This document shows positions 123 through 18,903 of a stretch of 19,007 nucleotides of DNA, one piece after another (position 1 is the first letter of the stretch; every line of letters begins with the position of its first letter). Location of the stretch: assembly GCA_037441385.1 (NCBI GenBank), contig JBBISH010000119.1, forward strand, positions 1-19,007, written 5' to 3'. The notes under the pieces are model-generated. The model ran no database searches. It saw only the letters and a list, made by a program, of their open reading frames with translations, and was not told where the DNA came from. The position numbers and the translations under genes were made by a program. Source of the stretch: Myxococcales bacterium. GTDB taxonomy: Bacteria; Myxococcota_A; UBA9042.

Positions 123-245
123 AGGGCGATTCGATGCGGTGGCAGAGTAGGCAACTGGTAAAGCAGGCGAACTGGTACGACCTGTGCGAGTAGCATACAG
201 TGGCGAGGCGGTTGCCGCAGGCGGCATTGCCGAGGCCAGATGTGA

Positions 246-377
246 CACGCACGCTACCGGATTCACCCGTGTACGGCTTCCATGACCCGGTCTGCAGCTG
301 GCAAGAGTCAGGCGGGATCCCTGGTTCAGGCCGGAACAATTGCCGAAGTTTTCTGGCCAGTTCCAGCGGATTCCGTG
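246..377 (+). mobile_element. Family A 132-bp MITE-like element, copy 1 (divergent)
   Basis: Aligns with the other copies. Ends CACG...CGTG. TGA direct repeats at 243-245 and 378-380. Confidence 0.85.
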
Positions 378-379
378 TG

Positions 380-3300
380 ATGTCGACTGCGGCCGCCGGC
401 CTTGGCTGTCGGTCGCGGTGGTCGGGTGGCACGGGGATCTTGGCGTCTTCGCTGCTGGTCGCCGTCGCCCTGGCGGTACTGGCCGTGGCGGCTGAAGTCT
501 GGGCTCAGCCCGGTCCCAGTCAGGCTCCGGTCGCTTTGCCCAAGGATTCCACGCTCATCGAGGCCTTGGCGCCGCTGTTGTCGGTATCGCCGGACGGTCA
601 GGCCGCGATCGCCCTGGGCAGTGACCACGGCTTGGAGATTCGCGACCGCGACTCCACCGTCTACCGGCCGTCGCCGCGGCAAAATGGCGTATCTTCAGAG
701 GAAGTCGCCTGGGCGCGGATCGTGGAGCGCGGCCGGCAACAGAGCAAAGTACTGGTGCGCGGCGCGTGCGACCCGCTGCAACCTGGCCTGGTGGTTTCGC
801 TGCGCCTGCGCGTGCCTGCCTGGGCGGCCGACGAGCCGCTGATGCGCGCCTTGGCGCTGGGTTTTGTGCCCCTTGGAGTGACCGACCGCCGCCCGCTGAC
901 CTCGCTGGCCACGCTGTTGGCGCAAAACGCCGCGGCGGCACAGGGCGCGGTTACTCGGCTGACCAGCGAGTCGCGATCGGTGGCCGACCAGGCGCGGGCC
1001 ATGAACAAGGCGGTGGTCCGCGGTCGATACCTGGGCCAGTCCTTGGGCCAGGCGATGGCCGCAACCGAAGACGCCGACACGCGCGAATGCCTGCGCTACG
1101 TGGTCGCCAATCCCGAGCGATACGCCAACTCGAGCTATGCTTGGGCCGAGATCTACGCGACCTGGCTGCTGTTTGCCGACGACGATCAAGCTGTTCGCCG
1201 CCACACCGACGCGGTTGCCGCGCTTGAGCAGCAGGCCGACGCCGCCAGTAGCAGCGAGCGTTTTGGCGAGGCCACGGCACTGTGGCAGCGCTTGCTCGCC
1301 CTGGAGCCCGAACAGCAACGGGCCAAGAAGGCACTTGCGGCCTTGGCCTGGCGCAGCAACTTGTTGGCGCAGCTGGCCGAAGCGCCTCGCGACCGCGATC
1401 TGCGGTGGAGCCTGAGTGTCGCCCTCATCGACCTGGGGGCCTACGCCGCCGCCCGGCAAGTGCTAGAGACCTTGGTGGCCGACGATGCCGAAGACACCGT
1501 GGCTGCGAACAAATTGGCCCAGCTGGCCTGGTGGCAGCGGCGGGTGGCCGAGGCTGAAGCTCGCTGGCGGGACCTGGCGCACCGCACCGGCAAGGCCACC
1601 TTCGCCAAGAGCGCCGACCTGATGCGCCAGTGGCTGCACACCACCGCCCACAATCAGGACTCGCCAAGCTGCCTGGCCCTGGCCAACGCCTTTGTCGACC
1701 ATCAAATGTGGAGTGACGCCAGCGCGTGGTATGGAGAGGCCCGACGGTTTTCGACGAGCGCTGCGGCCACCGCCCTGGCGTGTCAGGGCCAAGAGCGCGT
1801 GGATCGGGCGGTGCGGGCCACGGAGCGCGCCCAGCAGGGGCGCCAAGCCGTCGACGAGTTTGCGGTGGTGGCTGTGGAGGCGGCCTTTGACGATACAGTC
1901 AAGCTACTGGCGGATCGGCCGGCGGTGGCGGCAGAGCTGTTGCGGCCGGTTGCCGATGCCGCCCGCGACAAGCGGTTGTTGCACTTGGCCGAGCGCCTGG
2001 CGGAGCGCTTGGTGGCCATGGACCCCACCAATGTCGAGATGTGGAATACCCTGGCACTGACCCAAGGGAGGCTGCGCAAGCCCACGCAAGAGCTCAAGAC
2101 TCTGCTGCAGGCGCAGGAAATCGACGACTTTGGTGGCATGGCCGCCCTTGGTCAGTTTACTGCCTACATGCGCCTGGGCCAGCTGGCCAAGGCCCGCGAG
2201 GCGGCACGGCGCCTGATTCAGAAGGCGGGCGGCGATGCCATCGGCCACATCCTGGCCGCCAAGGTCGCTGTGGCCGAAGCCCGCTATGCCGAAGCCGCCC
2301 AGCACACCGCCAAGGCTTGGGCGCGGGTCTCGTTTGAGCCCGACGACAAGCACATTGCCCTGGCCGATCGTGCCGAGGTCGAAGCGGCGATCGACGCAGG
2401 TACGCAACTGCGCAGCTTGTCGCCTCGGCAACTGGCCACGCCGCAGGGCCGGCGCCTCACGCGCCAATTGGGGATCGCCTTGGCCGAGCTTGGGGCCTTT
2501 GATGCGGCCAGCAAAGTGCTGGAGCAACTGCCGTCCGGCTCTGCCGAACGCCGCGAGCTTGCCGGCGCCCTGGCCAGCGACGACACCACGCCGCCCGACA
2601 TGGCCTTGGCCTATTGCGAGCAAGCCCAAGACGGCAGCGCTGTGCGGCAGCGGCAGCTCCAGCGGATGCGGGCGGAAGCCGCGGCCTTGCGCCATCCCGA
2701 CGACTTGGGCCTGCAGTTGCGCTGGGCCCAGCTGCTGATCCTCGACGGGCAGTTCTTGCTGGCGCGCGGGGTGTGTGCCCAAGCGTTGGCCCGCGCCGAC
2801 CGCACGGGCGACCTTGCCGTTAACCTGAGCCAAGTAGCCAAGTTGGCCGACGACGGGCTGGCGGCAGATGCCCGCTTGGCCCAGTCTCGGGCGGCGAGCG
2901 TGGTCGACAACGACGAACAGGGCGAGTCCGAGGCGGTGGCGGCCTTGGCAGTGTTTCAGCGCCTGGGTGCTCCGGCTCGCGCAGGCGACGCTGCCCTTCG
3001 CGCGGCCTCGGCGGCGGCGGCGCACGGCGAGGAGCTGCGGGCCGTGGCGCTGGCCCAGCAGGCGGTGGCGATCGCCAAGAACGAGGGCGACCCTGCCGAC
3101 GTCCTCCGCGCCGAGGAGGTGCTGGCGCATATCCGAGCGCTGCTTGGCGCCCTCGACGCCTGGGCGCCGGCGATCGAGGCGCTTGAGCGCCGCTGCCTCG
3201 ACCGCGGCCGGGTGACCTGCCTGGCCGGAACGCGCCTGCGCCTGGCCCAAGGGGCCCGCCAGCAAGGGCGATTGGCTCAGGCCCTCGCCTACGCACGGCA

Positions 3301-5608
3301 GTCGCGCCGCAACGCCGAGCTCGGTGGCGAGCCGCACTTGTTCCGCAAGGCCTTGGACGAGGAGCTGAGCATCCTGATGGCGGCGGAGGACTTGCCCGAG
3401 GCCGTGACCGTCGCCACCCAGCTCTTCGAGATGGCCAGAGCTGGCGGCGAGGGGCACCAAGAGCGCGCCGCACTCACCCGGCTGGCGGCGGTCGCCTGGC
3501 GGCTCGGGGACGATCGCTTGGCTGCCGACCGGTTCGCCGCGGCCCTGGCCTCGGCCCACGACGCCGAGCCGGCCCAGGTGCCGTGGATCCGCCTTGAGCG
3601 CGCCCAATGGTGGCTCGACGGCCACGCGGGCGAGCAGGCCGTGCAGTGGGCGCAAAAGGCCGCCGACGAGATGGCCGAAGTTGCACAAGCGTATCGTGCG
3701 CGGAGCAGCGACACTTCGCGCATCGAGGCCGAAGCGCTGCAAGCGCGGGCCCTGCTGGCCGCCGGGCAGCCGTCCGAGGCGCGGCGTGTGGCGGCTCGGG
3801 TCGAAGCCGACGCGCTGGCCCGCTCGGCGTTTGAAGACGCACTCACCGCGGCCTGGGTGCGGGCCCGCAGCGAACCGGTCGCCGCCCAGGCCGTTGCCGC
3901 TGGCGAGCGGGCCGTCGCCTTGGCCAATCGGCTCGAATTGCCGGGCTGGCGTTCGCTGGCGCTGCACGCGCTGGGGCAAGCCCACCTGCGCGCTGGCGAT
4001 GCGGCCAAGGGTCGCAAGTGGCTGTTGCAGGCTGTGGATCAAGCCGCAGAACAAGCCGTGATGGCGGTTGGCGCGGCCAGTCCGGTGTTGCGGCGCGAGC
4101 GCGAACAGGTGTTTGCCGATGCGGTGCAAGCCCTGCTCGCAGCGGGTGCGCAGGATCAGGCCCTGCAAGTGCTGGCGGTGGCGCGAGCGGTGCAAGCCCG
4201 GAACAATCGCGCCCTTGCTGGTGTGCAGGCCGGCGACGCTGAGGCCCAAGCCGCCCTGCAAGCCTATGTTTCGGCTCGACAACAGCAGCACGCCGCGCGC
4301 GCCGCGGCCAGTCACTCGTCCGGGAAGGGCGCGGCCACGGCCGAGCAGTCGGCGTGGAAGGCGCGCGCCGAGGCCAAGACGCGGGAAACCCAGAGCCAGC
4401 TGCAGACCATTCGCGCCCACTACAAGCGCCTGTGGCCGCAGGTGGCGGTGGAGCCCGAGTCGTTGCCGGCGCTGCTCAAGAGATTGCCCGACAAGACCTT
4501 GATCCTCCAGTACTTTGCTTTGCCCGATCGCCTGGTGCTGTTTGTGGTCGGGCCCGGCGGTATCCAGACCCGCGAAGTGCCCGTGGCATGGCCCGAGGTC
4601 GAGCGCGCTGTCGAGGCCTGGCGGCGCTTGGCGGTCGACGACGGTCGGCGCCTGGCAGCAGCGAATGGTTCGCGCGGTGCGGAGGCCCTGGGCGACCTGC
4701 CTGCGGCGTCCACCGCGACGGTCGCGGCCGACCAGAGCCGCGAGCAGCAGCTTCAGACCGTGGGGTTGAAGCTCTATGGTTGGCTGCTGCAGCCGGTGCA
4801 AGCCGAAATCGCTGCGGCGAACACGGTGCTGGTGGTGCCGTTTTCGCTGCTCCACTACCTGCCCCTGCACGCCTTGCCGCACCGCACGCCAAGGGGCGAG
4901 ATCCGCTATGTGATCGAAGATGTGCGCATGGGCTACCTGTCCGCGGCCACGGCCACGGCGCTCGCCGACCGCCGCGCACGCACGCCTCGCAGCCTGCGCG
5001 TGTTGGGAATCGGCAATCCCGATGGCACCTTGCCCGGTGCCCACGCCGAGCTGCAGCAGGCGCGGCAGTTCATTGCCTCTGACAGCGTGCTGCTGTTTGG
5101 CAAAGAGGGGACGGTCGCCCAATTCACGTCGCTGGCCAAAGACTTCGACGTCTTGCACCTGGCCACCCACGGTGTGCTCCAAGCTGATCCGTCGCGCAGC
5201 TACCTGCGCATGGCCGACGGGCCGCTGACCCTGTCGGCGATTTCGGCCACCGATGGCCTGGCGCTGCGGCCCCGACTTGCGGTGCTGTCGGCCTGTTCGA
5301 CGCTGCTGCAGCGCGCGGCCGAGCCGGGGGTGGCCGTGGTCGGCGACGAAATTGCGTCGCTGGCCACCGCCTTTGCCGTGGCCGGAGTGCCCACCCTTGT
5401 AGCGACGCTGTGGGACGTGGACGACCAGGCGACGGCCGCGTTGATGGCGAGTTTCTATCGGCACTTGGCCGCTGGGGCCGATACGCTCGAAGCGCTGCGC
5501 CAGGCCCAGTTGGCCCTATTGGCGGCGGGGCGAAATGGCATGGGGCGGCCGGCCTTTGCTTCGCCAGCAGCCTGGGGAGCGGTAGAGCTGGTTGGCGATC
5601 CGCGTTGA
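380..5608 (+). CDS. Secreted TPR-repeat CHAT-domain (caspase-like) protease, ~1742 aa
   Basis: N-terminal hydrophobic signal (ILASSLLVAVALAVLAVAAEVWAQ), long Ala/Leu-rich TPR-like helical region, and a C-terminal CHAT domain (LVVPFSLLHYLPLHAL, LHLATHG His at 5168-5170, VLSAC Cys at 5294-5296, ATLWDVDD, SPAAWGA). Alternative start is GTG 242, in frame through element copy 1. Confidence 0.9.
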   Translation: MSTAAAGLGCRSRWSGGTGILASSLLVAVALAVLAVAAEVWAQPGPSQAPVALPKDSTLIEALAPLLSVSPDGQAAIALGSDHGLEIRDRDSTVYRPSPRQNGVSSEEVAWARIVERGRQQSKVLVRGACDPLQPGLVVSLRLRVPAWAADEPLMRALALGFVPLGVTDRRPLTSLATLLAQNAAAAQGAVTRLTSESRSVADQARAMNKAVVRGRYLGQSLGQAMAATEDADTRECLRYVVANPERYANSSYAWAEIYATWLLFADDDQAVRRHTDAVAALEQQADAASSSERFGEATALWQRLLALEPEQQRAKKALAALAWRSNLLAQLAEAPRDRDLRWSLSVALIDLGAYAAARQVLETLVADDAEDTVAANKLAQLAWWQRRVAEAEARWRDLAHRTGKATFAKSADLMRQWLHTTAHNQDSPSCLALANAFVDHQMWSDASAWYGEARRFSTSAAATALACQGQERVDRAVRATERAQQGRQAVDEFAVVAVEAAFDDTVKLLADRPAVAAELLRPVADAARDKRLLHLAERLAERLVAMDPTNVEMWNTLALTQGRLRKPTQELKTLLQAQEIDDFGGMAALGQFTAYMRLGQLAKAREAARRLIQKAGGDAIGHILAAKVAVAEARYAEAAQHTAKAWARVSFEPDDKHIALADRAEVEAAIDAGTQLRSLSPRQLATPQGRRLTRQLGIALAELGAFDAASKVLEQLPSGSAERRELAGALASDDTTPPDMALAYCEQAQDGSAVRQRQLQRMRAEAAALRHPDDLGLQLRWAQLLILDGQFLLARGVCAQALARADRTGDLAVNLSQVAKLADDGLAADARLAQSRAASVVDNDEQGESEAVAALAVFQRLGAPARAGDAALRAASAAAAHGEELRAVALAQQAVAIAKNEGDPADVLRAEEVLAHIRALLGALDAWAPAIEALERRCLDRGRVTCLAGTRLRLAQGARQQGRLAQALAYARQSRRNAELGGEPHLFRKALDEELSILMAAEDLPEAVTVATQLFEMARAGGEGHQERAALTRLAAVAWRLGDDRLAADRFAAALASAHDAEPAQVPWIRLERAQWWLDGHAGEQAVQWAQKAADEMAEVAQAYRARSSDTSRIEAEALQARALLAAGQPSEARRVAARVEADALARSAFEDALTAAWVRARSEPVAAQAVAAGERAVALANRLELPGWRSLALHALGQAHLRAGDAAKGRKWLLQAVDQAAEQAVMAVGAASPVLRREREQVFADAVQALLAAGAQDQALQVLAVARAVQARNNRALAGVQAGDAEAQAALQAYVSARQQQHAARAAASHSSGKGAATAEQSAWKARAEAKTRETQSQLQTIRAHYKRLWPQVAVEPESLPALLKRLPDKTLILQYFALPDRLVLFVVGPGGIQTREVPVAWPEVERAVEAWRRLAVDDGRRLAAANGSRGAEALGDLPAASTATVAADQSREQQLQTVGLKLYGWLLQPVQAEIAAANTVLVVPFSLLHYLPLHALPHRTPRGEIRYVIEDVRMGYLSAATATALADRRARTPRSLRVLGIGNPDGTLPGAHAELQQARQFIASDSVLLFGKEGTVAQFTSLAKDFDVLHLATHGVLQADPSRSYLRMADGPLTLSAISATDGLALRPRLAVLSACSTLLQRAAEPGVAVVGDEIASLATAFAVAGVPTLVATLWDVDDQATAALMASFYRHLAAGADTLEALRQAQLALLAAGRNGMGRPAFASPAAWGAVELVGDPR

Positions 5609-5963: not shown

Positions 5964-6001
5964 CCTCGCCATAGGCCGAAAGGTCTGGTTTGGAGGGGTG
6001 A

Positions 6002-6133
6002 TGCGGTTTCCGTCCAAATCGGCTCGAAAACTTCGGCAATTCTTCGGGCCCGAGCCGGGGTCCCCGCCTGATTCTCGCCGGTTGCAGACCGGGTCAGAGA
6101 AACCGTACAGGCGTGAATCAGACGGGGTTCGTA
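6002..6133 (-). mobile_element. Family A 132-bp element, copy 2
   Basis: Reverse-orientation full copy. TGA direct repeats at 5999-6001 and 6134-6136. Confidence 0.9.
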
Positions 6134-6194
6134 TGATGTGGGCGCTGCGCTGGTCAGGCCGGGCGACCGTGGGCGGTGGCGCCTTGCATCGGTC

Positions 6195-8755: not shown

Positions 8756-8769
8756 CTCCCACTCCGTAA

Positions 8770-8834
8770 TACGGTTTCCGTCCAAATCGGCTCGAAAACT
8801 TCGGCAATTCTTCGGGCCCGAACCGGGGTTCGTC
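8770..8834 (-). mobile_element. Family A element, copy 3 (65 bp, internally deleted)
   Basis: Both termini are present (TACGGTTTCCG... and ...GGGGTTCGTC). TAA direct repeats at 8767-8769 and 8835-8837. It lacks the 67 bp between the two CGGGGT motifs seen in copy 2. Confidence 0.85.
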
Positions 8835-10259: not shown

Positions 10260-10424
10260 CTAGAACACCAATCACGAATCTCCGAGGTTCAGAGCAACGA
10301 GAGCACTCGCTGACGAAAACTCGTGGATGCTCAGTGGGTCGCAAGCGGGCGCCCCAGAGCCCTGCACTGCCGCGACCCGCCGCGACGTTTGCCCCCAGGA
10401 CTGGGTTTCTGATCGGTGCTCTAG
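10260..10424. mobile_element. Family B CTAG-bounded MITE-like element, copy 1
   Basis: Terminal inverted repeats CTAGAACACCAATC...GATCGGTGCTCTAG; closely similar to 12605-12754. Confidence 0.8.
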
Positions 10425-10556
10425 CCACGGGCCGCGCCGTACCGCCGACCACAGGGGCCTGCGCGGCGAGCGGGATGAACCCAGCGGGCCGCAGGTGCGG
10501 CATCGGCCAGTTGTGGCCCGCAGCCACCGGCGCTACCCTGCTCCCCGGAGGTGGCC

Positions 10557-11906: not shown

Positions 11907-12608
11907 ATGGCCACGTTGCTGCTGGTCGATGATGATCGCAACCTGTTGGAATTGCTTAGCATGGCCTGCGAGGACGCTGGGCACCGCATCCTCACGGCCG
12001 GCGATGGCCGCAGCGGGCTCGAAGTCGTCAAGCGCGAGGCGGTCGATCTGGTCATCGCCGACGTCAACATGCCGATCGTCGACGGGTTTACTTTGGTTCG
12101 CCGCCTGCGCGAGGCCGGCGCCGCGGTCCCGGTGATCCTGCTGACCGCCCGCGACCACGAGGTGGACGAAGCGCTGGGCCTGGAACTCGGTGCCGACGAC
12201 TATGTGGCCAAACCCTACAATACACGGCTGCTTTTGGCGCGGGTAGCGGCGCTGCTCCGGCGCGACCAGCTGCGCGGGCGCAACGACGGCACGCCGCGGT
12301 TGCAGCACGGCCACCTCACCTGGGACACCGAGCGCCTGGAAGTGCGGTGGCGCGACCAGCTGCTGCCGATGACCGTGAGTGAATTCCGGCTGGTCGAGGC
12401 GCTGGTGCGCCGACCGGGCGTCGTGCTGAGTCGCGAAAAGCTGATGGATCTGGTGCGGGGCGACGACAGCGTAGTCGGCGAGCGCATCATCGACACGTGG
12501 GTCCGGCGTCTGCGGCGCAAATTCGAGGGTGCGGACGCCAGCTTTGATCGCATCGACACCGTGGTGGGCGCCGGCTACCGCTGGCGCAGTGACGGCGAAA
12601 CACGCTAG
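11907..12608 (+). CDS. OmpR/PhoB-family response regulator (ChvI/CreB-like), 233 aa
   Basis: Receiver domain LLVDDD...IADVNMP...LLTAR...GADDYVAKP; winged-helix domain TVSEFRLVEALVRRPGVVLSREKL...RRLRRKF...IDTVVGAGYRW. Confidence 0.95.
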   Translation: MATLLLVDDDRNLLELLSMACEDAGHRILTAGDGRSGLEVVKREAVDLVIADVNMPIVDGFTLVRRLREAGAAVPVILLTARDHEVDEALGLELGADDYVAKPYNTRLLLARVAALLRRDQLRGRNDGTPRLQHGHLTWDTERLEVRWRDQLLPMTVSEFRLVEALVRRPGVVLSREKLMDLVRGDDSVVGERIIDTWVRRLRRKFEGADASFDRIDTVVGAGYRWRSDGETR

Positions 12609-12754
12609 AACACCCATCGCAAATCTCCGAGGTCCAGAGCAACGCAACCACTCGCTGACGAAGACTCGTTGATGCTCAGTGGGTCGCAAGCCGGCGCTCG
12701 CGCGACCCGCCGCGACGTTTGCCCGCAGATCCGGGGTTCTGATCGGTGCTCCAG
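12605..12754. mobile_element. Family B MITE-like element, copy 2
   Basis: CTAGAACACCCATC...GATCGGTGCTCCAG, 15 bp shorter than copy 1. Its left CTAG contains the regulator's TAG stop. Confidence 0.8.
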
Positions 12755-12851
12755 GCGCGAGTCGGACTATCCCGACACGCTCCTAGTCGCACCCAAGCCG
12801 GCGAAGGTACTGGACCTGGACTTGCCCGTTGGCGGGCCGCGGTGAGGTAGC

Positions 12852-13946
12852 ATGGGACGGAGCCCACCCCCAGAGACCCACCTGCCTGCGCCCCGTGCCC
12901 GGCCGCTGTGGCCCCAGCGGCGCCGTGGGTGGTTGCGTTCGCTGCGGTTGCGGGCCCTGCTGGTGACCGTGGCGGTGGCGCTGTGGCCGCTGGCGGTGTG
13001 GCAAGAGCTGGGCTGGCGAGCCTGGCTGGCGCAGGTGCTGCCGGTCGCGCTGGGGCTGGGTTGGTGGTTGGGTTGGCGCATGGTGCGACCCATCGAACTG
13101 CTCAACGATCAAGCTCAGCGCCGCAGTGGGCCGGCGGCCGACGACTTTGACCTGGACCCGCACCGCAGCGACGAGTTTGGCGAGTTGGCGGCTTCGCTCA
13201 ATGGCTTGCTGCATCGCCTGGACCAGCGGTCGCAAGCCAACGCGCGCTTTACGGCCGACGTGGCCCACGAACTGAAGAATCAGCTCGCGGCGGTACGCGG
13301 GGTGGCCGAACGTCTGCGCGACGGGCCGCCCAGCGCCGAACGGGCGGCGCGCCTGGCCGAGATCCTGTTGGGAAGCTCGCGCCGCCTGAATGAATTGGTT
13401 AGTGATTTATTGGAGTTGACACGTGCCGAGGCCGGTATGCCCGGCGAAACCCGGCAACGGGTCGACCTGGCGAGCTTGTGCACCGCCTTGGTGGCGCAAC
13501 TGGCCGCGGACCCGCGCTGGAGCGAGCGGCTGACGTTGACGGCGAGCGCGCCGCAGTCGCTCTACGCCGACGGGGTGGCCGTGCGCCTGGAGGCGGCGAT
13601 TCGCAATCTGATTGAAAACGCTTGCCATTTTGCCGTACGCCATGTCGCAGTCCACGTCGAGTCGAGCGGAGATCGGGTGCGCATCACGGTCGCCGACGAT
13701 GGACCGGGTGTTCCGCCCGAGCAAGCAAACCAAGTGTTCGAGCGCTTCTACACCACCCGGCCGGGCCAGGGCACTGGGCTGGGGCTGCCGCTGGTGCGGG
13801 CGATTGCCGAGGGTCATGGTGGAGTTGCGATGCTGTTGCCGGTTCGCGAGGGGGCGACGTTTGCCCTGGAGCTCCCGCTGGCGACCGAGCTCGAAACGGG
13901 CGCCCCGGCTGCCCCGGCTCGTATGTCGGATACCAACCTCGTCTGA
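12852..13946 (+). CDS. Sensor histidine kinase (2 TM, HAMP, HisKA, HATPase), ChvG/CreC-like
   Basis: HAMP (RPIELL...DEFGELAASLN), H-box ADVAHELKNQL, N-box NLIENA, G1 DDGPG, F-box FERFY, G2 GTGLGL. Confidence 0.93.
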   Translation: MGRSPPPETHLPAPRARPLWPQRRRGWLRSLRLRALLVTVAVALWPLAVWQELGWRAWLAQVLPVALGLGWWLGWRMVRPIELLNDQAQRRSGPAADDFDLDPHRSDEFGELAASLNGLLHRLDQRSQANARFTADVAHELKNQLAAVRGVAERLRDGPPSAERAARLAEILLGSSRRLNELVSDLLELTRAEAGMPGETRQRVDLASLCTALVAQLAADPRWSERLTLTASAPQSLYADGVAVRLEAAIRNLIENACHFAVRHVAVHVESSGDRVRITVADDGPGVPPEQANQVFERFYTTRPGQGTGLGLPLVRAIAEGHGGVAMLLPVREGATFALELPLATELETGAPAAPARMSDTNLV

Positions 13947-14062
13947 TTCACGCCTGTACGGTTTCTCTGACCCGGTCTGCAACCGGCGAGAATCAGGCGG
14001 GTACTCCGGTTCGGGCCCGAAGAATTGCCGGAGTTTTCGAGCTGAATTAGGCGGATTCCGTA
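13931..14062 (+). mobile_element. Family A 132-bp element, copy 4
   Basis: Full copy with GGA direct repeats at 13928-13930 and 14063-14065; overlaps the kinase 3' end. Confidence 0.9.
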
Positions 14063-14104
14063 GGAGCAGCGGCAGCCGGGTCGCGCTGGCGCGCGGCTGC
14101 TGGG

Positions 14105-15362: not shown

Positions 15363-15468
15363 GCGGACGCGGAGTAGTCGGCCGCGCCGTGCAGTTGCCG
15401 CTGGGTGTTGCCCCGGCGTAGCCTATGGTCTGTGGAACGCAGCGAGTGCGGGAGCTTGGACCACATGA

Positions 15469-15600
15469 TACGCACCCCACCTGATTCGCGCCTGTACGAC
15501 TTTTCTGATCCGTTCTGCAACTGGCGAGAATCAGGCGGGGACCCCGGTTCGGGCCCGAAGAACTGCCCGAGTTTTCGATCCGATTCGGACGGAATTGGCA
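15469..15600 (+). mobile_element. Family A 132-bp element, copy 5
   Basis: Full copy with TGA direct repeats at 15466-15468 and 15601-15603. Confidence 0.9.
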
Positions 15601-16499
15601 TGAGCGCAAGAAGGCCGCCGATGGCGCGACGCCGCTGGGTAGGGATTGGGGTGCTGGCCGCCAGTTGCTGGCTTGCTCTGGCTGCGCCCGTCCGGGCAGG
15701 CGAGCCCGGCGAGGTGAGTTGGCTGACGCGCCCTGCGCGGCTCAGCGTGCAGCACAGCGGGCCGATGGGGCAGCATCAGCTGTGGGCCTTGGACGATGGG
15801 CGCGTAGTCACCCTGGAATGGATCAGCGGTTCGATGGAACTAGGGCCTGCCGACCAGGGGCCGACCGCCAGCCTGTGCCGCGTGCCCGCCGCCCAAGTGG
15901 CCAAGGCCGTCGCTGCACTGCGGCGCGGTAGTCTGTGCAAAACTCCTAGCAATTCAGGTAATTCAGTGGGCGGTGCCATCGCCATCGCGGCCGATCTGGG
16001 CGACGGCCAGCACTGCGTGGTCCGCCGGCGATCGCGCACCTGGAGCGCCGCCGACAGCAAGCTGTTGAGCCAGGTGGAAAACCTTGTCCACAGCGGGACT
16101 TGCGTGGCATTGCCGGACGAGGTGAGCGCGGCGGCCCTGGGGGCCATGCCCAAACTGGACCCGCAGGTCGAATGGCTCCAGGGGGGCACCCTGACGGAGT
16201 CTTTCGGCTTTGACCCGACCGGCGAACTGCTGGCCTGGCAATTCTTGCAGCCGCTGCCGCAGCGCAGCGTCCAGGCCGCCTTGGCCCAGCAGGCCGCCGA
16301 GCTGGCAAATCGCCTGCGGAGCGTACCCTGTCAACCGAACGTGCAAGATGGCCGCGAGGGCGAGGTTCAAGTGCGCGTACGTATGGGCAAAGTCGGCCTT
16401 GGCCCCTGGAACGCGGCCACCTGGCAGCGGTCGCCTTGCTTGCAGCCCGTGTGGCGGTGGCTCCATGCGCTGCGGGCGCCGGCCCAGGGTGACAAGTAG
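15600..16499 (+). CDS. Secreted protein of unknown function, ~299 aa
   Basis: Signal peptide RRRWVGIGVLAASCWLALAAPVRA-GE. Alternative starts: ATG 15465 (in frame through the element) and ATG 15621. Confidence 0.7.
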   Translation: MSARRPPMARRRWVGIGVLAASCWLALAAPVRAGEPGEVSWLTRPARLSVQHSGPMGQHQLWALDDGRVVTLEWISGSMELGPADQGPTASLCRVPAAQVAKAVAALRRGSLCKTPSNSGNSVGGAIAIAADLGDGQHCVVRRRSRTWSAADSKLLSQVENLVHSGTCVALPDEVSAAALGAMPKLDPQVEWLQGGTLTESFGFDPTGELLAWQFLQPLPQRSVQAALAQQAAELANRLRSVPCQPNVQDGREGEVQVRVRMGKVGLGPWNAATWQRSPCLQPVWRWLHALRAPAQGDK

Positions 16500-16619: not shown

Positions 16620-16628
16620 TGCTAGACT
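16620..16628 (+). promoter_or_regulatory. Extended -10 promoter of the retron
   Basis: TG-C-TAGACT, 6 nt upstream of the first base of the a1/a2 repeat (16635). Confidence 0.55.
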
Positions 16629-16634
16629 GGCTGC

Positions 16635-16797
16635 GGGTTGCGGCGCGCGCCAAGCAGACCTCAGGCAGCTTGCCTCGGTCTCTCTGGGGCTACCCCAGGG
16701 CAATTCATCGGCTTATCGGGCCATCGCAGGACCCGCTGCGTGGCCTCTCACGCGACCGGTCCTGCACGACGAGCGAGGTTGGCGCGTGCCGCAATCC
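16635..16797 (+). ncRNA. Retron msr-msd ncRNA
   Basis: 19-bp a1/a2 inverted repeat 16635-16653 / 16779-16797 (17 Watson-Crick + 2 G-U pairs); G16654 in an AGC context directly after the 5' arm; msr stem-loops 16657-16680 and 16682-16700; msd hairpin with GCAGGACC/GGTCCTGC and GCGTG/CACGC stems; upstream of a retron RT. Confidence 0.88.
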
Positions 16798-16803
16798 TTC
16801 CCA

Positions 16804-16935
16804 AGCCAGATCCACTCGAATCCGCTCGAAGAAGTCGGCGACTCTTGGGTCCTGAACCGGGTTTCCGGCCTGATTCTTGCCAGTTGCAGTGTGAGTCCAA
16901 CAGGCGATGCACGGGCGAATCCGCTGGGGAGCGCA
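16804..16935 (-). mobile_element. Family A 132-bp element, copy 6 (divergent)
   Basis: Degenerate reverse copy of the same length; CCA direct repeats at 16801-16803 and 16936-16938. Confidence 0.8.
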
Positions 16936-16955
16936 CCAACCAGCCGGGGTGCGGC

Positions 16956-18293
16956 ATGACCACGCCGCAGTCGCGCTGGCGCCAACGCCTGGCTCGGGCG
17001 CTGGGTGCCGCGTTTCTGTCTGGGCCGTGGCAACACGCCGACCTGGTCGCGCGCGGGGCTGCGTGCCTGGGTGACAAACCGCCATGGTTGTCGATTGCAG
17101 CCCGCTGGACGCGCCACGCCTTCCCGTCGCCTCCCGCCACCGTCGCGCCCGTGGCCGAGCGTCTGTTGCGCTTGCCCTCGTTCCAGGCTGCCACCAGCGG
17201 CCGATCGCCTAAGCCTAGATGCCGCAAAGCCTTCTTGTTCGCTCCGCCGACAACGGCCCCCGCTTTTGGCCTGCCGCCGCTTGCGTCCGAGGCGGCGCTG
17301 GCTCAGTGGCTCGCGGTGCCGGAGCCGCTGCTGGAATGGCTGGCCGATGTGCGCAGCCTGGTCCGCCACAGCAGCGAGTCGCGCCTGCACCACTACCACC
17401 CGCGCTGGTTGCCCAAGCCCCACGGCGGAGTGCGCCTGCTCGAAGAGCCCAAACCCCTGTTGAAGCAGGTGCAACGGCGCTTGTTGGCTGGCCTTCTCGC
17501 CCACTTGCCGCCCCACGCGGCCGCCCATGCGTTCCGCCGCGGCCACTCGGTACTGACTCACGCCGCCGTCCACGCCGGGCAGGCCGTGGTGATTCGCCTT
17601 GATCTTGCGGACTTCTTTGGCAGCATCGGCAGGGGGCGCGTGCGGGCCCTGTTTGAATCGGTGGGCTATCCTCGTCCGGTGGCGGCCGCACTGGCCGGCT
17701 TGTGCACGACTGCCACCCCTCCCAGCGTGGTCGCCCGCTTGCCGCGGCCGGTCGATGCGGCCGAGGTGCCCTTGGTCGCCAGCCAGCGGCGCCACTTGCT
17801 TGCGCCGCACCTGCCGCAGGGTGCGCCCACCTCGCCGGCTGTGGCCAACCTCTGTGCCTGGGAGCTGGACGTGCGCCTTGCCGCGCTGGCCGCTGTGTTT
17901 GGCGCGCGCTACTCGCGCTACGCCGATGATCTCACGTTTTCGGGTAGTTCCGAGGTGGCGCGCCGGGCGAATGCACTCGTCGAGCTTGCGATGTTCGTCG
18001 TCTATTCGTGTGGCTTTGCCGTGCGGCATGGCAAGACGCGGGTGCAGCGCGCGGGCGCTCGCCAAAGGGTGACTGGGCTGGTCGTCAACGAGCGACCGCA
18101 CGTGGCGCGCGCCGAGCGGGACGCGCTGAAAGCGACTCTGCACAACTGCCTGCTCTACGGTCCGGCTGGCCAAAATCGCAACGGCCATCCAGATTTCCGC
18201 GCCTACCTGCTTGGACGGATCGGCTGGGTGGCTGCGGCAGACCCCCACCACGGTGCCAAGCTGCGGGCCCTGTTCGACGGCATTGCATGGTAG
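16956..18293 (+). CDS. Retron-type reverse transcriptase with an N-terminal extension, 445 aa
   Basis: KPHGGVRLLEEPKPLLKQVQR, AHAFRRG, region-X-like HAAVH (17559-17573), DLADFF, LPQGAPTSP, YADD (17919-17930), retron region Y VTGLVVN (from 18069). Confidence 0.93.
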   Translation: MTTPQSRWRQRLARALGAAFLSGPWQHADLVARGAACLGDKPPWLSIAARWTRHAFPSPPATVAPVAERLLRLPSFQAATSGRSPKPRCRKAFLFAPPTTAPAFGLPPLASEAALAQWLAVPEPLLEWLADVRSLVRHSSESRLHHYHPRWLPKPHGGVRLLEEPKPLLKQVQRRLLAGLLAHLPPHAAAHAFRRGHSVLTHAAVHAGQAVVIRLDLADFFGSIGRGRVRALFESVGYPRPVAAALAGLCTTATPPSVVARLPRPVDAAEVPLVASQRRHLLAPHLPQGAPTSPAVANLCAWELDVRLAALAAVFGARYSRYADDLTFSGSSEVARRANALVELAMFVVYSCGFAVRHGKTRVQRAGARQRVTGLVVNERPHVARAERDALKATLHNCLLYGPAGQNRNGHPDFRAYLLGRIGWVAAADPHHGAKLRALFDGIAW

Positions 18294-18438
18294 GGGTGGC
18301 CCGCGTCGCTGCACCAAGCCGCCTGGCGCCCAAGCTGGCGAGCATTTTGCTGAGTGCCGTCGCGATTGCGGTTGACCCAACCCATCTCACAGCGTAGCCT
18401 GGGCCCCTGAAACAGCCCGAATGGCTGTGGATTCCGCG

Positions 18439-18903
18439 ATGTCGAGCGTAGCCCGATTGCGCAGGTGGTGGTGGGGTGGGCCCTGGGCCGCCTGCTGCGC
18501 GCTTGTGGTGGGGTGCTCCGACGATGGTGCCGCCGCCACCGGAAGCGTGGCCGACGGCGGCTGGGCGATCCAAACCGATCTGCTGAGCGCAGGCGCGGAC
18601 TTGACTGGCTTGGGCGACAGCGCGGCGGGCACGATCCCGCTATGCCCCGCCAGCCCGGTGTGCAGCTGCAGCGGCGCAGCCGAGGGGGCGACCTGCAATT
18701 CGGGCGAACCGTGCGCCGTCGCCAGCGCCTGCCAGGCCGGCTCTTGCCAAGTGCTCTCGGTGCGGTCCTGCCCCAGTTTGGGCTGCCAGTTAGGCACTTG
18801 CGACCCGCAATCTGGTCAGTGCGTCTACCACCCCACCGCCACGGGCACGCCGTGCGACGATGGCAGCGCCTGCACCGTCGACGGAACCTGTCAACCTTTC
18901 TGA
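18439..18903 (+). CDS. Cys-rich repeat lipoprotein (possibly C-terminally truncated)
   Basis: Lipobox LVVG-C; repeats CNSGEPCAVASACQAGSC and CDDGSACTVDGTC. Alternative ATG 18421. Confidence 0.7.
   Translation: MSSVARLRRWWWGGPWAACCALVVGCSDDGAAATGSVADGGWAIQTDLLSAGADLTGLGDSAAGTIPLCPASPVCSCSGAAEGATCNSGEPCAVASACQAGSCQVLSVRSCPSLGCQLGTCDPQSGQCVYHPTATGTPCDDGSACTVDGTCQPF

Follow-up and report, generated by a model that had tools for sequence, protein, structure and literature searches.

The 19,007-nucleotide (nt) contig JBBISH010000119.1 of a Myxococcales bacterium (assembly GCA_037441385.1; this whole stretch is referred to as the window) carries at positions 16620–18293 a locus that we assign with high confidence to the stand-alone retrons of clade 11, comprising a promoter signal, an msr-msd RNA, and a retron reverse transcriptase (RT). 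Its description as a complete retron without a linked effector gene is supported by the classification of the RT, by a covarying non-coding RNA, and by a neighborhood comparison with a working positive control. The locus is a new example of an already described partner-less lineage and not a new kind of retron; the surprise at a missing effector that was implied in an earlier note on this DNA, made from the sequence alone, is not upheld, stand-alone cassettes having been described for clade 11 in the cited parts of two studies (PMC7736814; PMC13712802). The features of the locus are:

16620–16628, + strand: extended −10 element (TG-n-TAGACT), its position kept across relatives
16635–16653, + strand: a1 inverted-repeat arm, pairing with a2, with compensatory changes in 14 of 14 modelled a1/a2 pairs
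16654, + strand: predicted branching guanosine G16654 (2′-OH primer), an invariant column in the 68 aligned RNAs
16656–16681, + strand: msr hairpin 1, varying in length and sequence in the family
16682–16700, + strand: msr hairpin 2 (G4-triloop-C4), the stem that the RT is predicted to recognize, judging from known retrons
16701–16777, + strand: msd template region of at most 77 nt, containing the conserved hairpin 16726–16765
16778–16797, + strand: invariant G opposite the branch point (16778) and the a2 arm (16779–16797)
16804–16935, + strand: 132-base-pair (bp) repeat resembling a MITE (miniature inverted-repeat transposable element), a diverged copy between a2 and the RT start, with a CCA direct repeat (16801–16803 and 16936–16938)
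16956–18293, + strand: retron RT, clade 11 (“outgroup”), 445 amino acids (aa), with ATG at 16956, YADD at residues 322–325, VTG at 372–374, and no C-terminal fusion
16956–17210, + strand: family-specific, cationic N-terminal five-helix domain of the RT (residues ~1–85), with a predicted local distance difference test score (pLDDT) of ~95 over the helices

With the PADLOC models the RT scores 500 bits on RT_other, 472 on RT_outgroup, 303 on RT_XIII, and 198 on RT_Ec107-like, the RT_other and RT_outgroup matches spanning its whole length, N-terminal domain included; the assignment to clade 11 is one by profile, not by the Mestre reference tree. When 26 related RTs were scanned in the same way, the 17 family-like proteins scored best on RT_other and the nine type XIII-like ones on RT_XIII. 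A quick maximum-likelihood tree of 77 proteins gives the family branch a support of 100 and sets it apart from type XIII, with one long-branch viral row inside. The ten best matches to the predicted RT structure are all retron RTs (7v9x at E 1.7e-18). The RT is intact, as previously read from its YADD and VTG motifs: YADD is present in 89 of 90 family loci, and the VTG position of region Y often reads LAG, VAG, or VCG in the family with the G retained. The NAxxH motif of region X reads HAAVH in this RT, where H206 is invariant and almost every aligned member has another residue in place of the Asn. The gene is the sole RVT_1 match in the source genome, and the ratio of nonsynonymous to synonymous substitution rates (dN/dS) is 0.14 relative to the nearest relative, L001, at dS 0.93. 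The family is large: of 8,000 clusters scored, 5,197 reach E ≤ 1e-60, some of which may be type XIII.

The RT ends at W445, coincident with the end of the family model, and almost every member terminates no more than about 10 aa from that point, so that a C-terminally fused effector is excluded for this 445-residue sequence. The earlier note had considered the effector to be absent, fused, or acting in trans; the lack of a linked effector stands, whereas fusion at the C terminus does not.

The a1 (16635–16653) and a2 (16779–16797) arms pair over 19 bp, with two G-U pairs as the only departures from Watson-Crick pairing (17 pairs), just as first described. The stem scores 17.6, versus a best of 15.8 in 300 random 435-nt windows of the source genome, none of which reaches it, and the 16630–16800 segment folds at −99 kcal/mol (z −5.93; none of 200 shuffles as good). 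G16654, already named as the candidate branching residue, is unpaired directly 3′ of a1, with G16778 opposite. Among the 79 family loci with enough upstream DNA for a stem search, an unanchored search for the best stem placed a G...G junction at its end in 70; 68 of these were aligned, one near-duplicate and one locus with a shortened hairpin being dropped. A covariance model of the homologues’ upstream regions, proposed earlier as a check, reveals a conserved structure in which 28 of 32 consensus pairs carry compensatory changes and 94.6% of the cells in consensus pairs are paired, versus 40–46% in slid controls. Since the aligned RNAs were selected for having an a1/a2 stem, the inner hairpins provide the fairer test of covariation, and they covary too: compensatory changes occur in all 10 pairs of the msd hairpin 16726–16765. 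The motif of msr hairpin 2 is found in 67 of 70 loci, with 99.6% of its cells paired.

Both msr hairpins noted earlier are confirmed, although hairpin 1 is missing from the alignment consensus owing to its length variation. For the msd, the region proposed (~16708–16776) is confirmed, but not its reading as a single hairpin: the conserved hairpin is that at 16726–16765, and a small hairpin at 16710–16722 is not part of the family consensus. Between hairpin 2 and the G that precedes a2 lie 70–79 nt in 61 of 70 loci. The length and sequence of the msd are conserved beyond pairing, the hairpin sequence being partly fixed across loci, which suggests that something reads the product or that it has a binding partner. 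In Ec86, DNA synthesis leaves out the G facing the branch point. If the same applies here, the predicted multicopy single-stranded DNA (msDNA) likely starts at the complement of 16777, one base later and one C shorter than the start proposed from the sequence.

The resulting model, R1, recovered 16 left-out family loci at E < 1e-10, plus two weaker ones, and finds one copy in the source genome. R1 had no match in 22 loci (L185–L206, including L185 and L186, whose RTs are family-like) or in 11 viral retron loci. An Rfam scan of the window gave no match to a retron RNA; the OutgroupA and OutgroupB models are not in Rfam.

The promoter signal, too, recurs across the family. The extended −10 box noted earlier (TG-n-TAGACT) belongs to a TAnnnT element that 65 of 70 relatives carry 24–33 nt 5′ of the branching G (control window, 6 of 70); 36 of 70 have its extended form (TGnTAnnnT). 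The −10 hexamer lies ~7 nt before a1 in the 65 loci, and this constant placement suggests that each cassette likely has its own promoter, with transcription predicted to start at about 16634–16635, i.e. at the start of a1. A generic sigma-70 scan, which requires a −35 element, returned no sites over the extended −10. We regard it as probable that the retron makes msDNA in its host.

A search for a linked effector was carried out by clustering six-frame open reading frames (ORFs) of at least 70 aa in the flanks of 90 family loci. Loci were drawn from genomes (9), from matches in 401 genomes (30), and from the best 80 of 586 metagenome loci. The comparison of homologues’ neighborhoods suggested in the earlier note thereby yields no conserved effector: the largest shared neighbor family is present at 5 of 90 loci, in differing positions and orientations, and most other shared families consist of a few closely related loci at one common site. 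The immediate neighbors of the window retron fall in none of the families from this 90-locus clustering. By comparison, the same clustering of 23 lower-scoring loci recovered one upstream gene, SWIM_XIII, in 17 of 23. Adjacent genes show mixed orientations (upstream, 38 same and 27 opposite; downstream, 35 same and 41 opposite). Genes next to the cassette in 87 loci, called crudely and cut off at 450 aa, gave 141 adjacent proteins; most of those with a Pfam name have metabolic or housekeeping functions, and three match PADLOC, each via a generic MacB, ABC-ATPase, or methyltransferase domain. Both neighbors in the window have signal-peptide-like or lipobox-like N termini, read from their sequences, and neither matches Pfam, NCBIfam, or PADLOC, in agreement with their earlier description as exported proteins unlike effectors. 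SWIM_XIII was not found in any of five carrier genomes. Searches of the 80 best viral loci, of 50,697 phage records, and of mobilizable plasmids did not find the clade 11 family itself.

In one locus (L042:2102–6654) the cassette lies between urocanase and amidohydrolase genes, apparently inside a histidine-utilization operon. Elsewhere in the window, the ORF at 18421–18903, Cys-rich and lipoprotein-like, breaks off abruptly once its first repeats have been read, is followed by low-GC sequence, and is possibly truncated.

In the cited part of their study, Mestre et al. (2020; PMC7736814) describe stand-alone (msr-msd)-RT cassettes in clade 11 and in a branch of clade 2, and leave open whether their effectors act in trans or the cassettes have another function. 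A 2026 survey lists clade11-A (71) and clade11-B (39), without an accessory domain and with OutgroupA/B RNA models (PMC13712802, in the part cited). The clade 11 cassettes and the window retron are alike in RT models, in a canonical msr-msd RNA directly upstream, and in having no associated protein cluster; the window retron differs in that its host is a member of the Myxococcota and that a 132-bp MITE separates its RNA and RT. Clade 11 was termed essentially actinobacterial in the 2020 text cited (PMC7736814), a range already widened in the 2026 survey (PMC13712802). A census table (PMC10849725) assigns retrons of Myxococcus xanthus DZ2 and of Micromonospora to clade 11, and these taxa are also among the RT family matches found here. 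The census text, in the portion cited, reports “intermediate production” of msDNA for clades that it does not name individually, clade 11 included (PMC10849725).

The Ec107-like branch of clade 2, with Retron-Eco5 (Ec107), is likewise described, in the part of the 2020 study cited, as without a linked effector and not prophage-related (PMC7736814), but it belongs to another RT clade (198 versus 472 bits), and its model, 307 positions long, leaves the N-terminal domain uncovered. Type XIII (clade 10: Mx162, Mx65, Sa163, and Ne144) is the nearest other RT group (303 bits) and is common in the same phylum; in contrast to the window retron, it has its own adjacent SWIM effector, a different RNA (no R1 match), and a charged helical N terminus. 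A type XIII identity was rejected on the RT scores, the tree, the lack of a SWIM neighbor, and a search of the source genome in which no SWIM_XIII was found. The tripartite retrons Ec86, Ec67, Ec78, and Ec83 are similar in RT fold and in their a1/a2–branching G–msr-msd architecture, but the window retron is without an adjacent or C-terminally fused effector and its family lies outside defense islands and prophages. Its identification as a tripartite or C-terminally fused-effector defense retron was rejected, given that the RT ends with the family model and that no neighbor recurs.

What such a cassette does is best approached through its conserved parts. We propose that a single transcript, running from a1 to the RT stop under the cassette’s own −10 box, would supply both the RNA and the mRNA; pairing of a1 with a2 would expose G16654, and the RT would bind msr hairpin 2, prime on the 2′-OH of G16654, and copy from about 16777 towards 16701, giving a DNA of up to 77 nt with a 40-nt hairpin. 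The branched RNA-DNA would remain bound to the RT, and the msd hairpin together with the family-specific N-terminal domain may form the surface that contacts a DNA-processing protein of the host or of a phage, encoded at an unlinked site. The RT-msDNA particle would then serve such a protein as decoy or sensor and would not be a lock on an adjoining toxin. We tentatively consider this action in trans the likeliest role, ahead of a fused effector, a passenger, or a silenced copy, because there is no toxin gene beside the cassette, selection is strong, the cassette is retained for long periods by housekeeping genes in some lineages (locus pairs at 73–87% RT identity keep the same housekeeping neighbor), and the family is absent from mobile contexts.

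Several observations weigh against action in trans. No partner protein was identified, and conservation of the msd could reflect binding by the RT alone. Flanks of 1.4 kb or longer are available on either side for only 46 of the 90 loci, ORFs shorter than 70 aa lie outside the clustering test, and 5 of the 141 neighbors are toxin-antitoxin-like (AbiEii 2, Uma2 2, PIN 1), a raw count without a matched background. Carriers are patchily distributed, with 2 among 11 genomes of the genus and about 10 among the 401 of the phylum sample, and decayed copies occur: 54 of 150 matches to the N-terminal domain run into unrelated sequence, mostly in a frameshift-like manner, and one clade 11 remnant (L012:1336–1737, G034:C9) is internally deleted, so that its RNA runs directly into the final ~75 codons of the RT, which carry a frameshift. 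Such patchiness and decay also fit a dispensable or selfish element.

Similar hairpins are present on both flanks of the L012 remnant. Another possible remnant, L015 (G004:C710:286–510), in a third genome of the genus, is a weak match to RT residues 9–82 only, with a stop and without an RNA match.

A first alternative is a single-gene abortive defense in which the N-terminal five-helix domain is itself a fused effector, possibly membrane-active and saposin-like, that RT-msDNA holds inactive and infection releases. The domain occurs only at the start of the clade 11 RT family, the best 150 of 983 matches to its profile all aligning there, and it is under the same selection as the RT core (dN/dS 0.142 versus 0.138). 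It is cationic (median net charge +7 in 80 members) and is predicted to fold alone (pLDDT 88), differing from the charged N termini of type XIII. It matches no Pfam family and has no significant structural match; among its weak structural matches, however, saposin-like and circular-bacteriocin chains recur (2mp8, 3s63, and 1nkl). Duplication of the domain in the locus L185 is a further point in favor, and fused-effector retrons are described for types I-C, XI, and XII in the cited part of PMC7736814. We nevertheless regard this explanation as unlikely for the window retron. Less likely still is its extension to the whole of clade 11 as widespread one-gene systems (more than 5,000 protein clusters), located among housekeeping genes outside defense islands, with a previously unrecognized five-helix, cationic, saposin-like N-terminal domain serving as an msDNA-gated effector.

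The locus just mentioned (L185:1210–2718) encodes a family-like RT in which the N-terminal domain is tandemly duplicated, without a clear R1 RNA match. L186 and L187 encode retron-like RTs with an N terminus resembling a transmembrane helix, L186 scoring equally on the outgroup and type XIII models.

It is comparably improbable that the cassette is a selfish or near-neutral passenger, i.e. a minimal element spreading between sites and lineages, purified only by the need to stay active and of no benefit to the host. Homology with L001 does stop at the cassette edges, from the −10 box (16622) to 10 nt past the stop, with other genes on both sides; loci are found at many unrelated housekeeping sites, such as that of L042; and both the patchy distribution and the remnants are compatible with a passenger. 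The source genome, however, contains a single copy, no flanking direct or inverted repeats above chance were found in 65 loci, no integrase or transposase is present among the Pfam-named adjacent proteins, and some lineages have long kept the cassette at one site. Moreover, rearrangements surround many genes in the two nearest genomes, and a difference in site is therefore not necessarily a sign of retron movement.

The 132-bp dispersed repeat at 16804–16935 was overlooked in the earlier note. Its family has 402 profile matches in the source genome, of which 228 are full copies, with a modal length of 132, and of 87 copies scored for their flanks, 55 have identical 3-bp flanks, which read T-N-A in 50 cases; the repeat also occurs in genome G007. 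The element is short, non-coding, of high copy number, bounded by a target-site duplication, and matched by an empty site in a relative, features that together characterize a MITE; its autonomous partner was not found in the repeat analysis of the source genome. The empty site is provided by L001, the nearest relative and also from the Myxococcota (RT 80% identical at the aa level, RNA 89% identical), where 17 nt separate this CCA from the ATG, just as they do after the repeat in the window, and a2 lies ~24 nt from the ATG. The insertion appears to be tolerated, since the predicted RNA fold is intact and the RT shows no decay.

The weakest alternative, and in our view a quite improbable one, is that the MITE has silenced this copy by uncoupling RT translation or ending transcription, leaving a relic: the a2-to-RT distance is the longest of 70 loci (176 nt versus a median of 22) and the repeat can fold on itself, but the insertion is old (68.7 bits versus a median of 137) and the RT is still without a stop or frameshift, scores 643 bits versus 635 for the uninterrupted L001 on a branch of 0.14 versus 0.11, and is preceded by an RNA whose predicted fold is the same with the MITE attached, no terminator-like site having been found in the MITE.

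Further copies of the MITE lie in the window at 244–378, 6000–6135, 8768–8830, 13930–14063, and 15467–15602, one of them partial; one copy extends up to the ATG of the gene that lies upstream of the retron, and another lies just before the likely start of a large TPR-CHAT (caspase-like) protein (200–5608). A second dispersed repeat family of ~165 bp (67 blast matches in the source genome) is represented at 10260–10434 and 12605–12764. Positions 52–122 match the 3′ domain of a group II intron (Rfam RF00029, 43 bits), and positions 1–200 have 16 blast matches in the source genome, where the intron RT was not found; these may be ORF-less intron remnants.

The role of effector-less retrons is the question posed by Mestre et al. 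(2020) in the part of their study cited here, and the present comparison of loci sharpens that question without answering it. A compact, toxin-less retron with a fixed template of ~75 nt may suit genome editing in high-GC hosts. The window copy with its MITE is a natural test of whether the RNA and the RT start must adjoin. For the family as a whole, clade 11 emerges as a large group with its own promoter signal, under strong selection, located among housekeeping genes and not found on phages, in which two conserved surfaces, the msd hairpin and the N-terminal domain, are directly testable.
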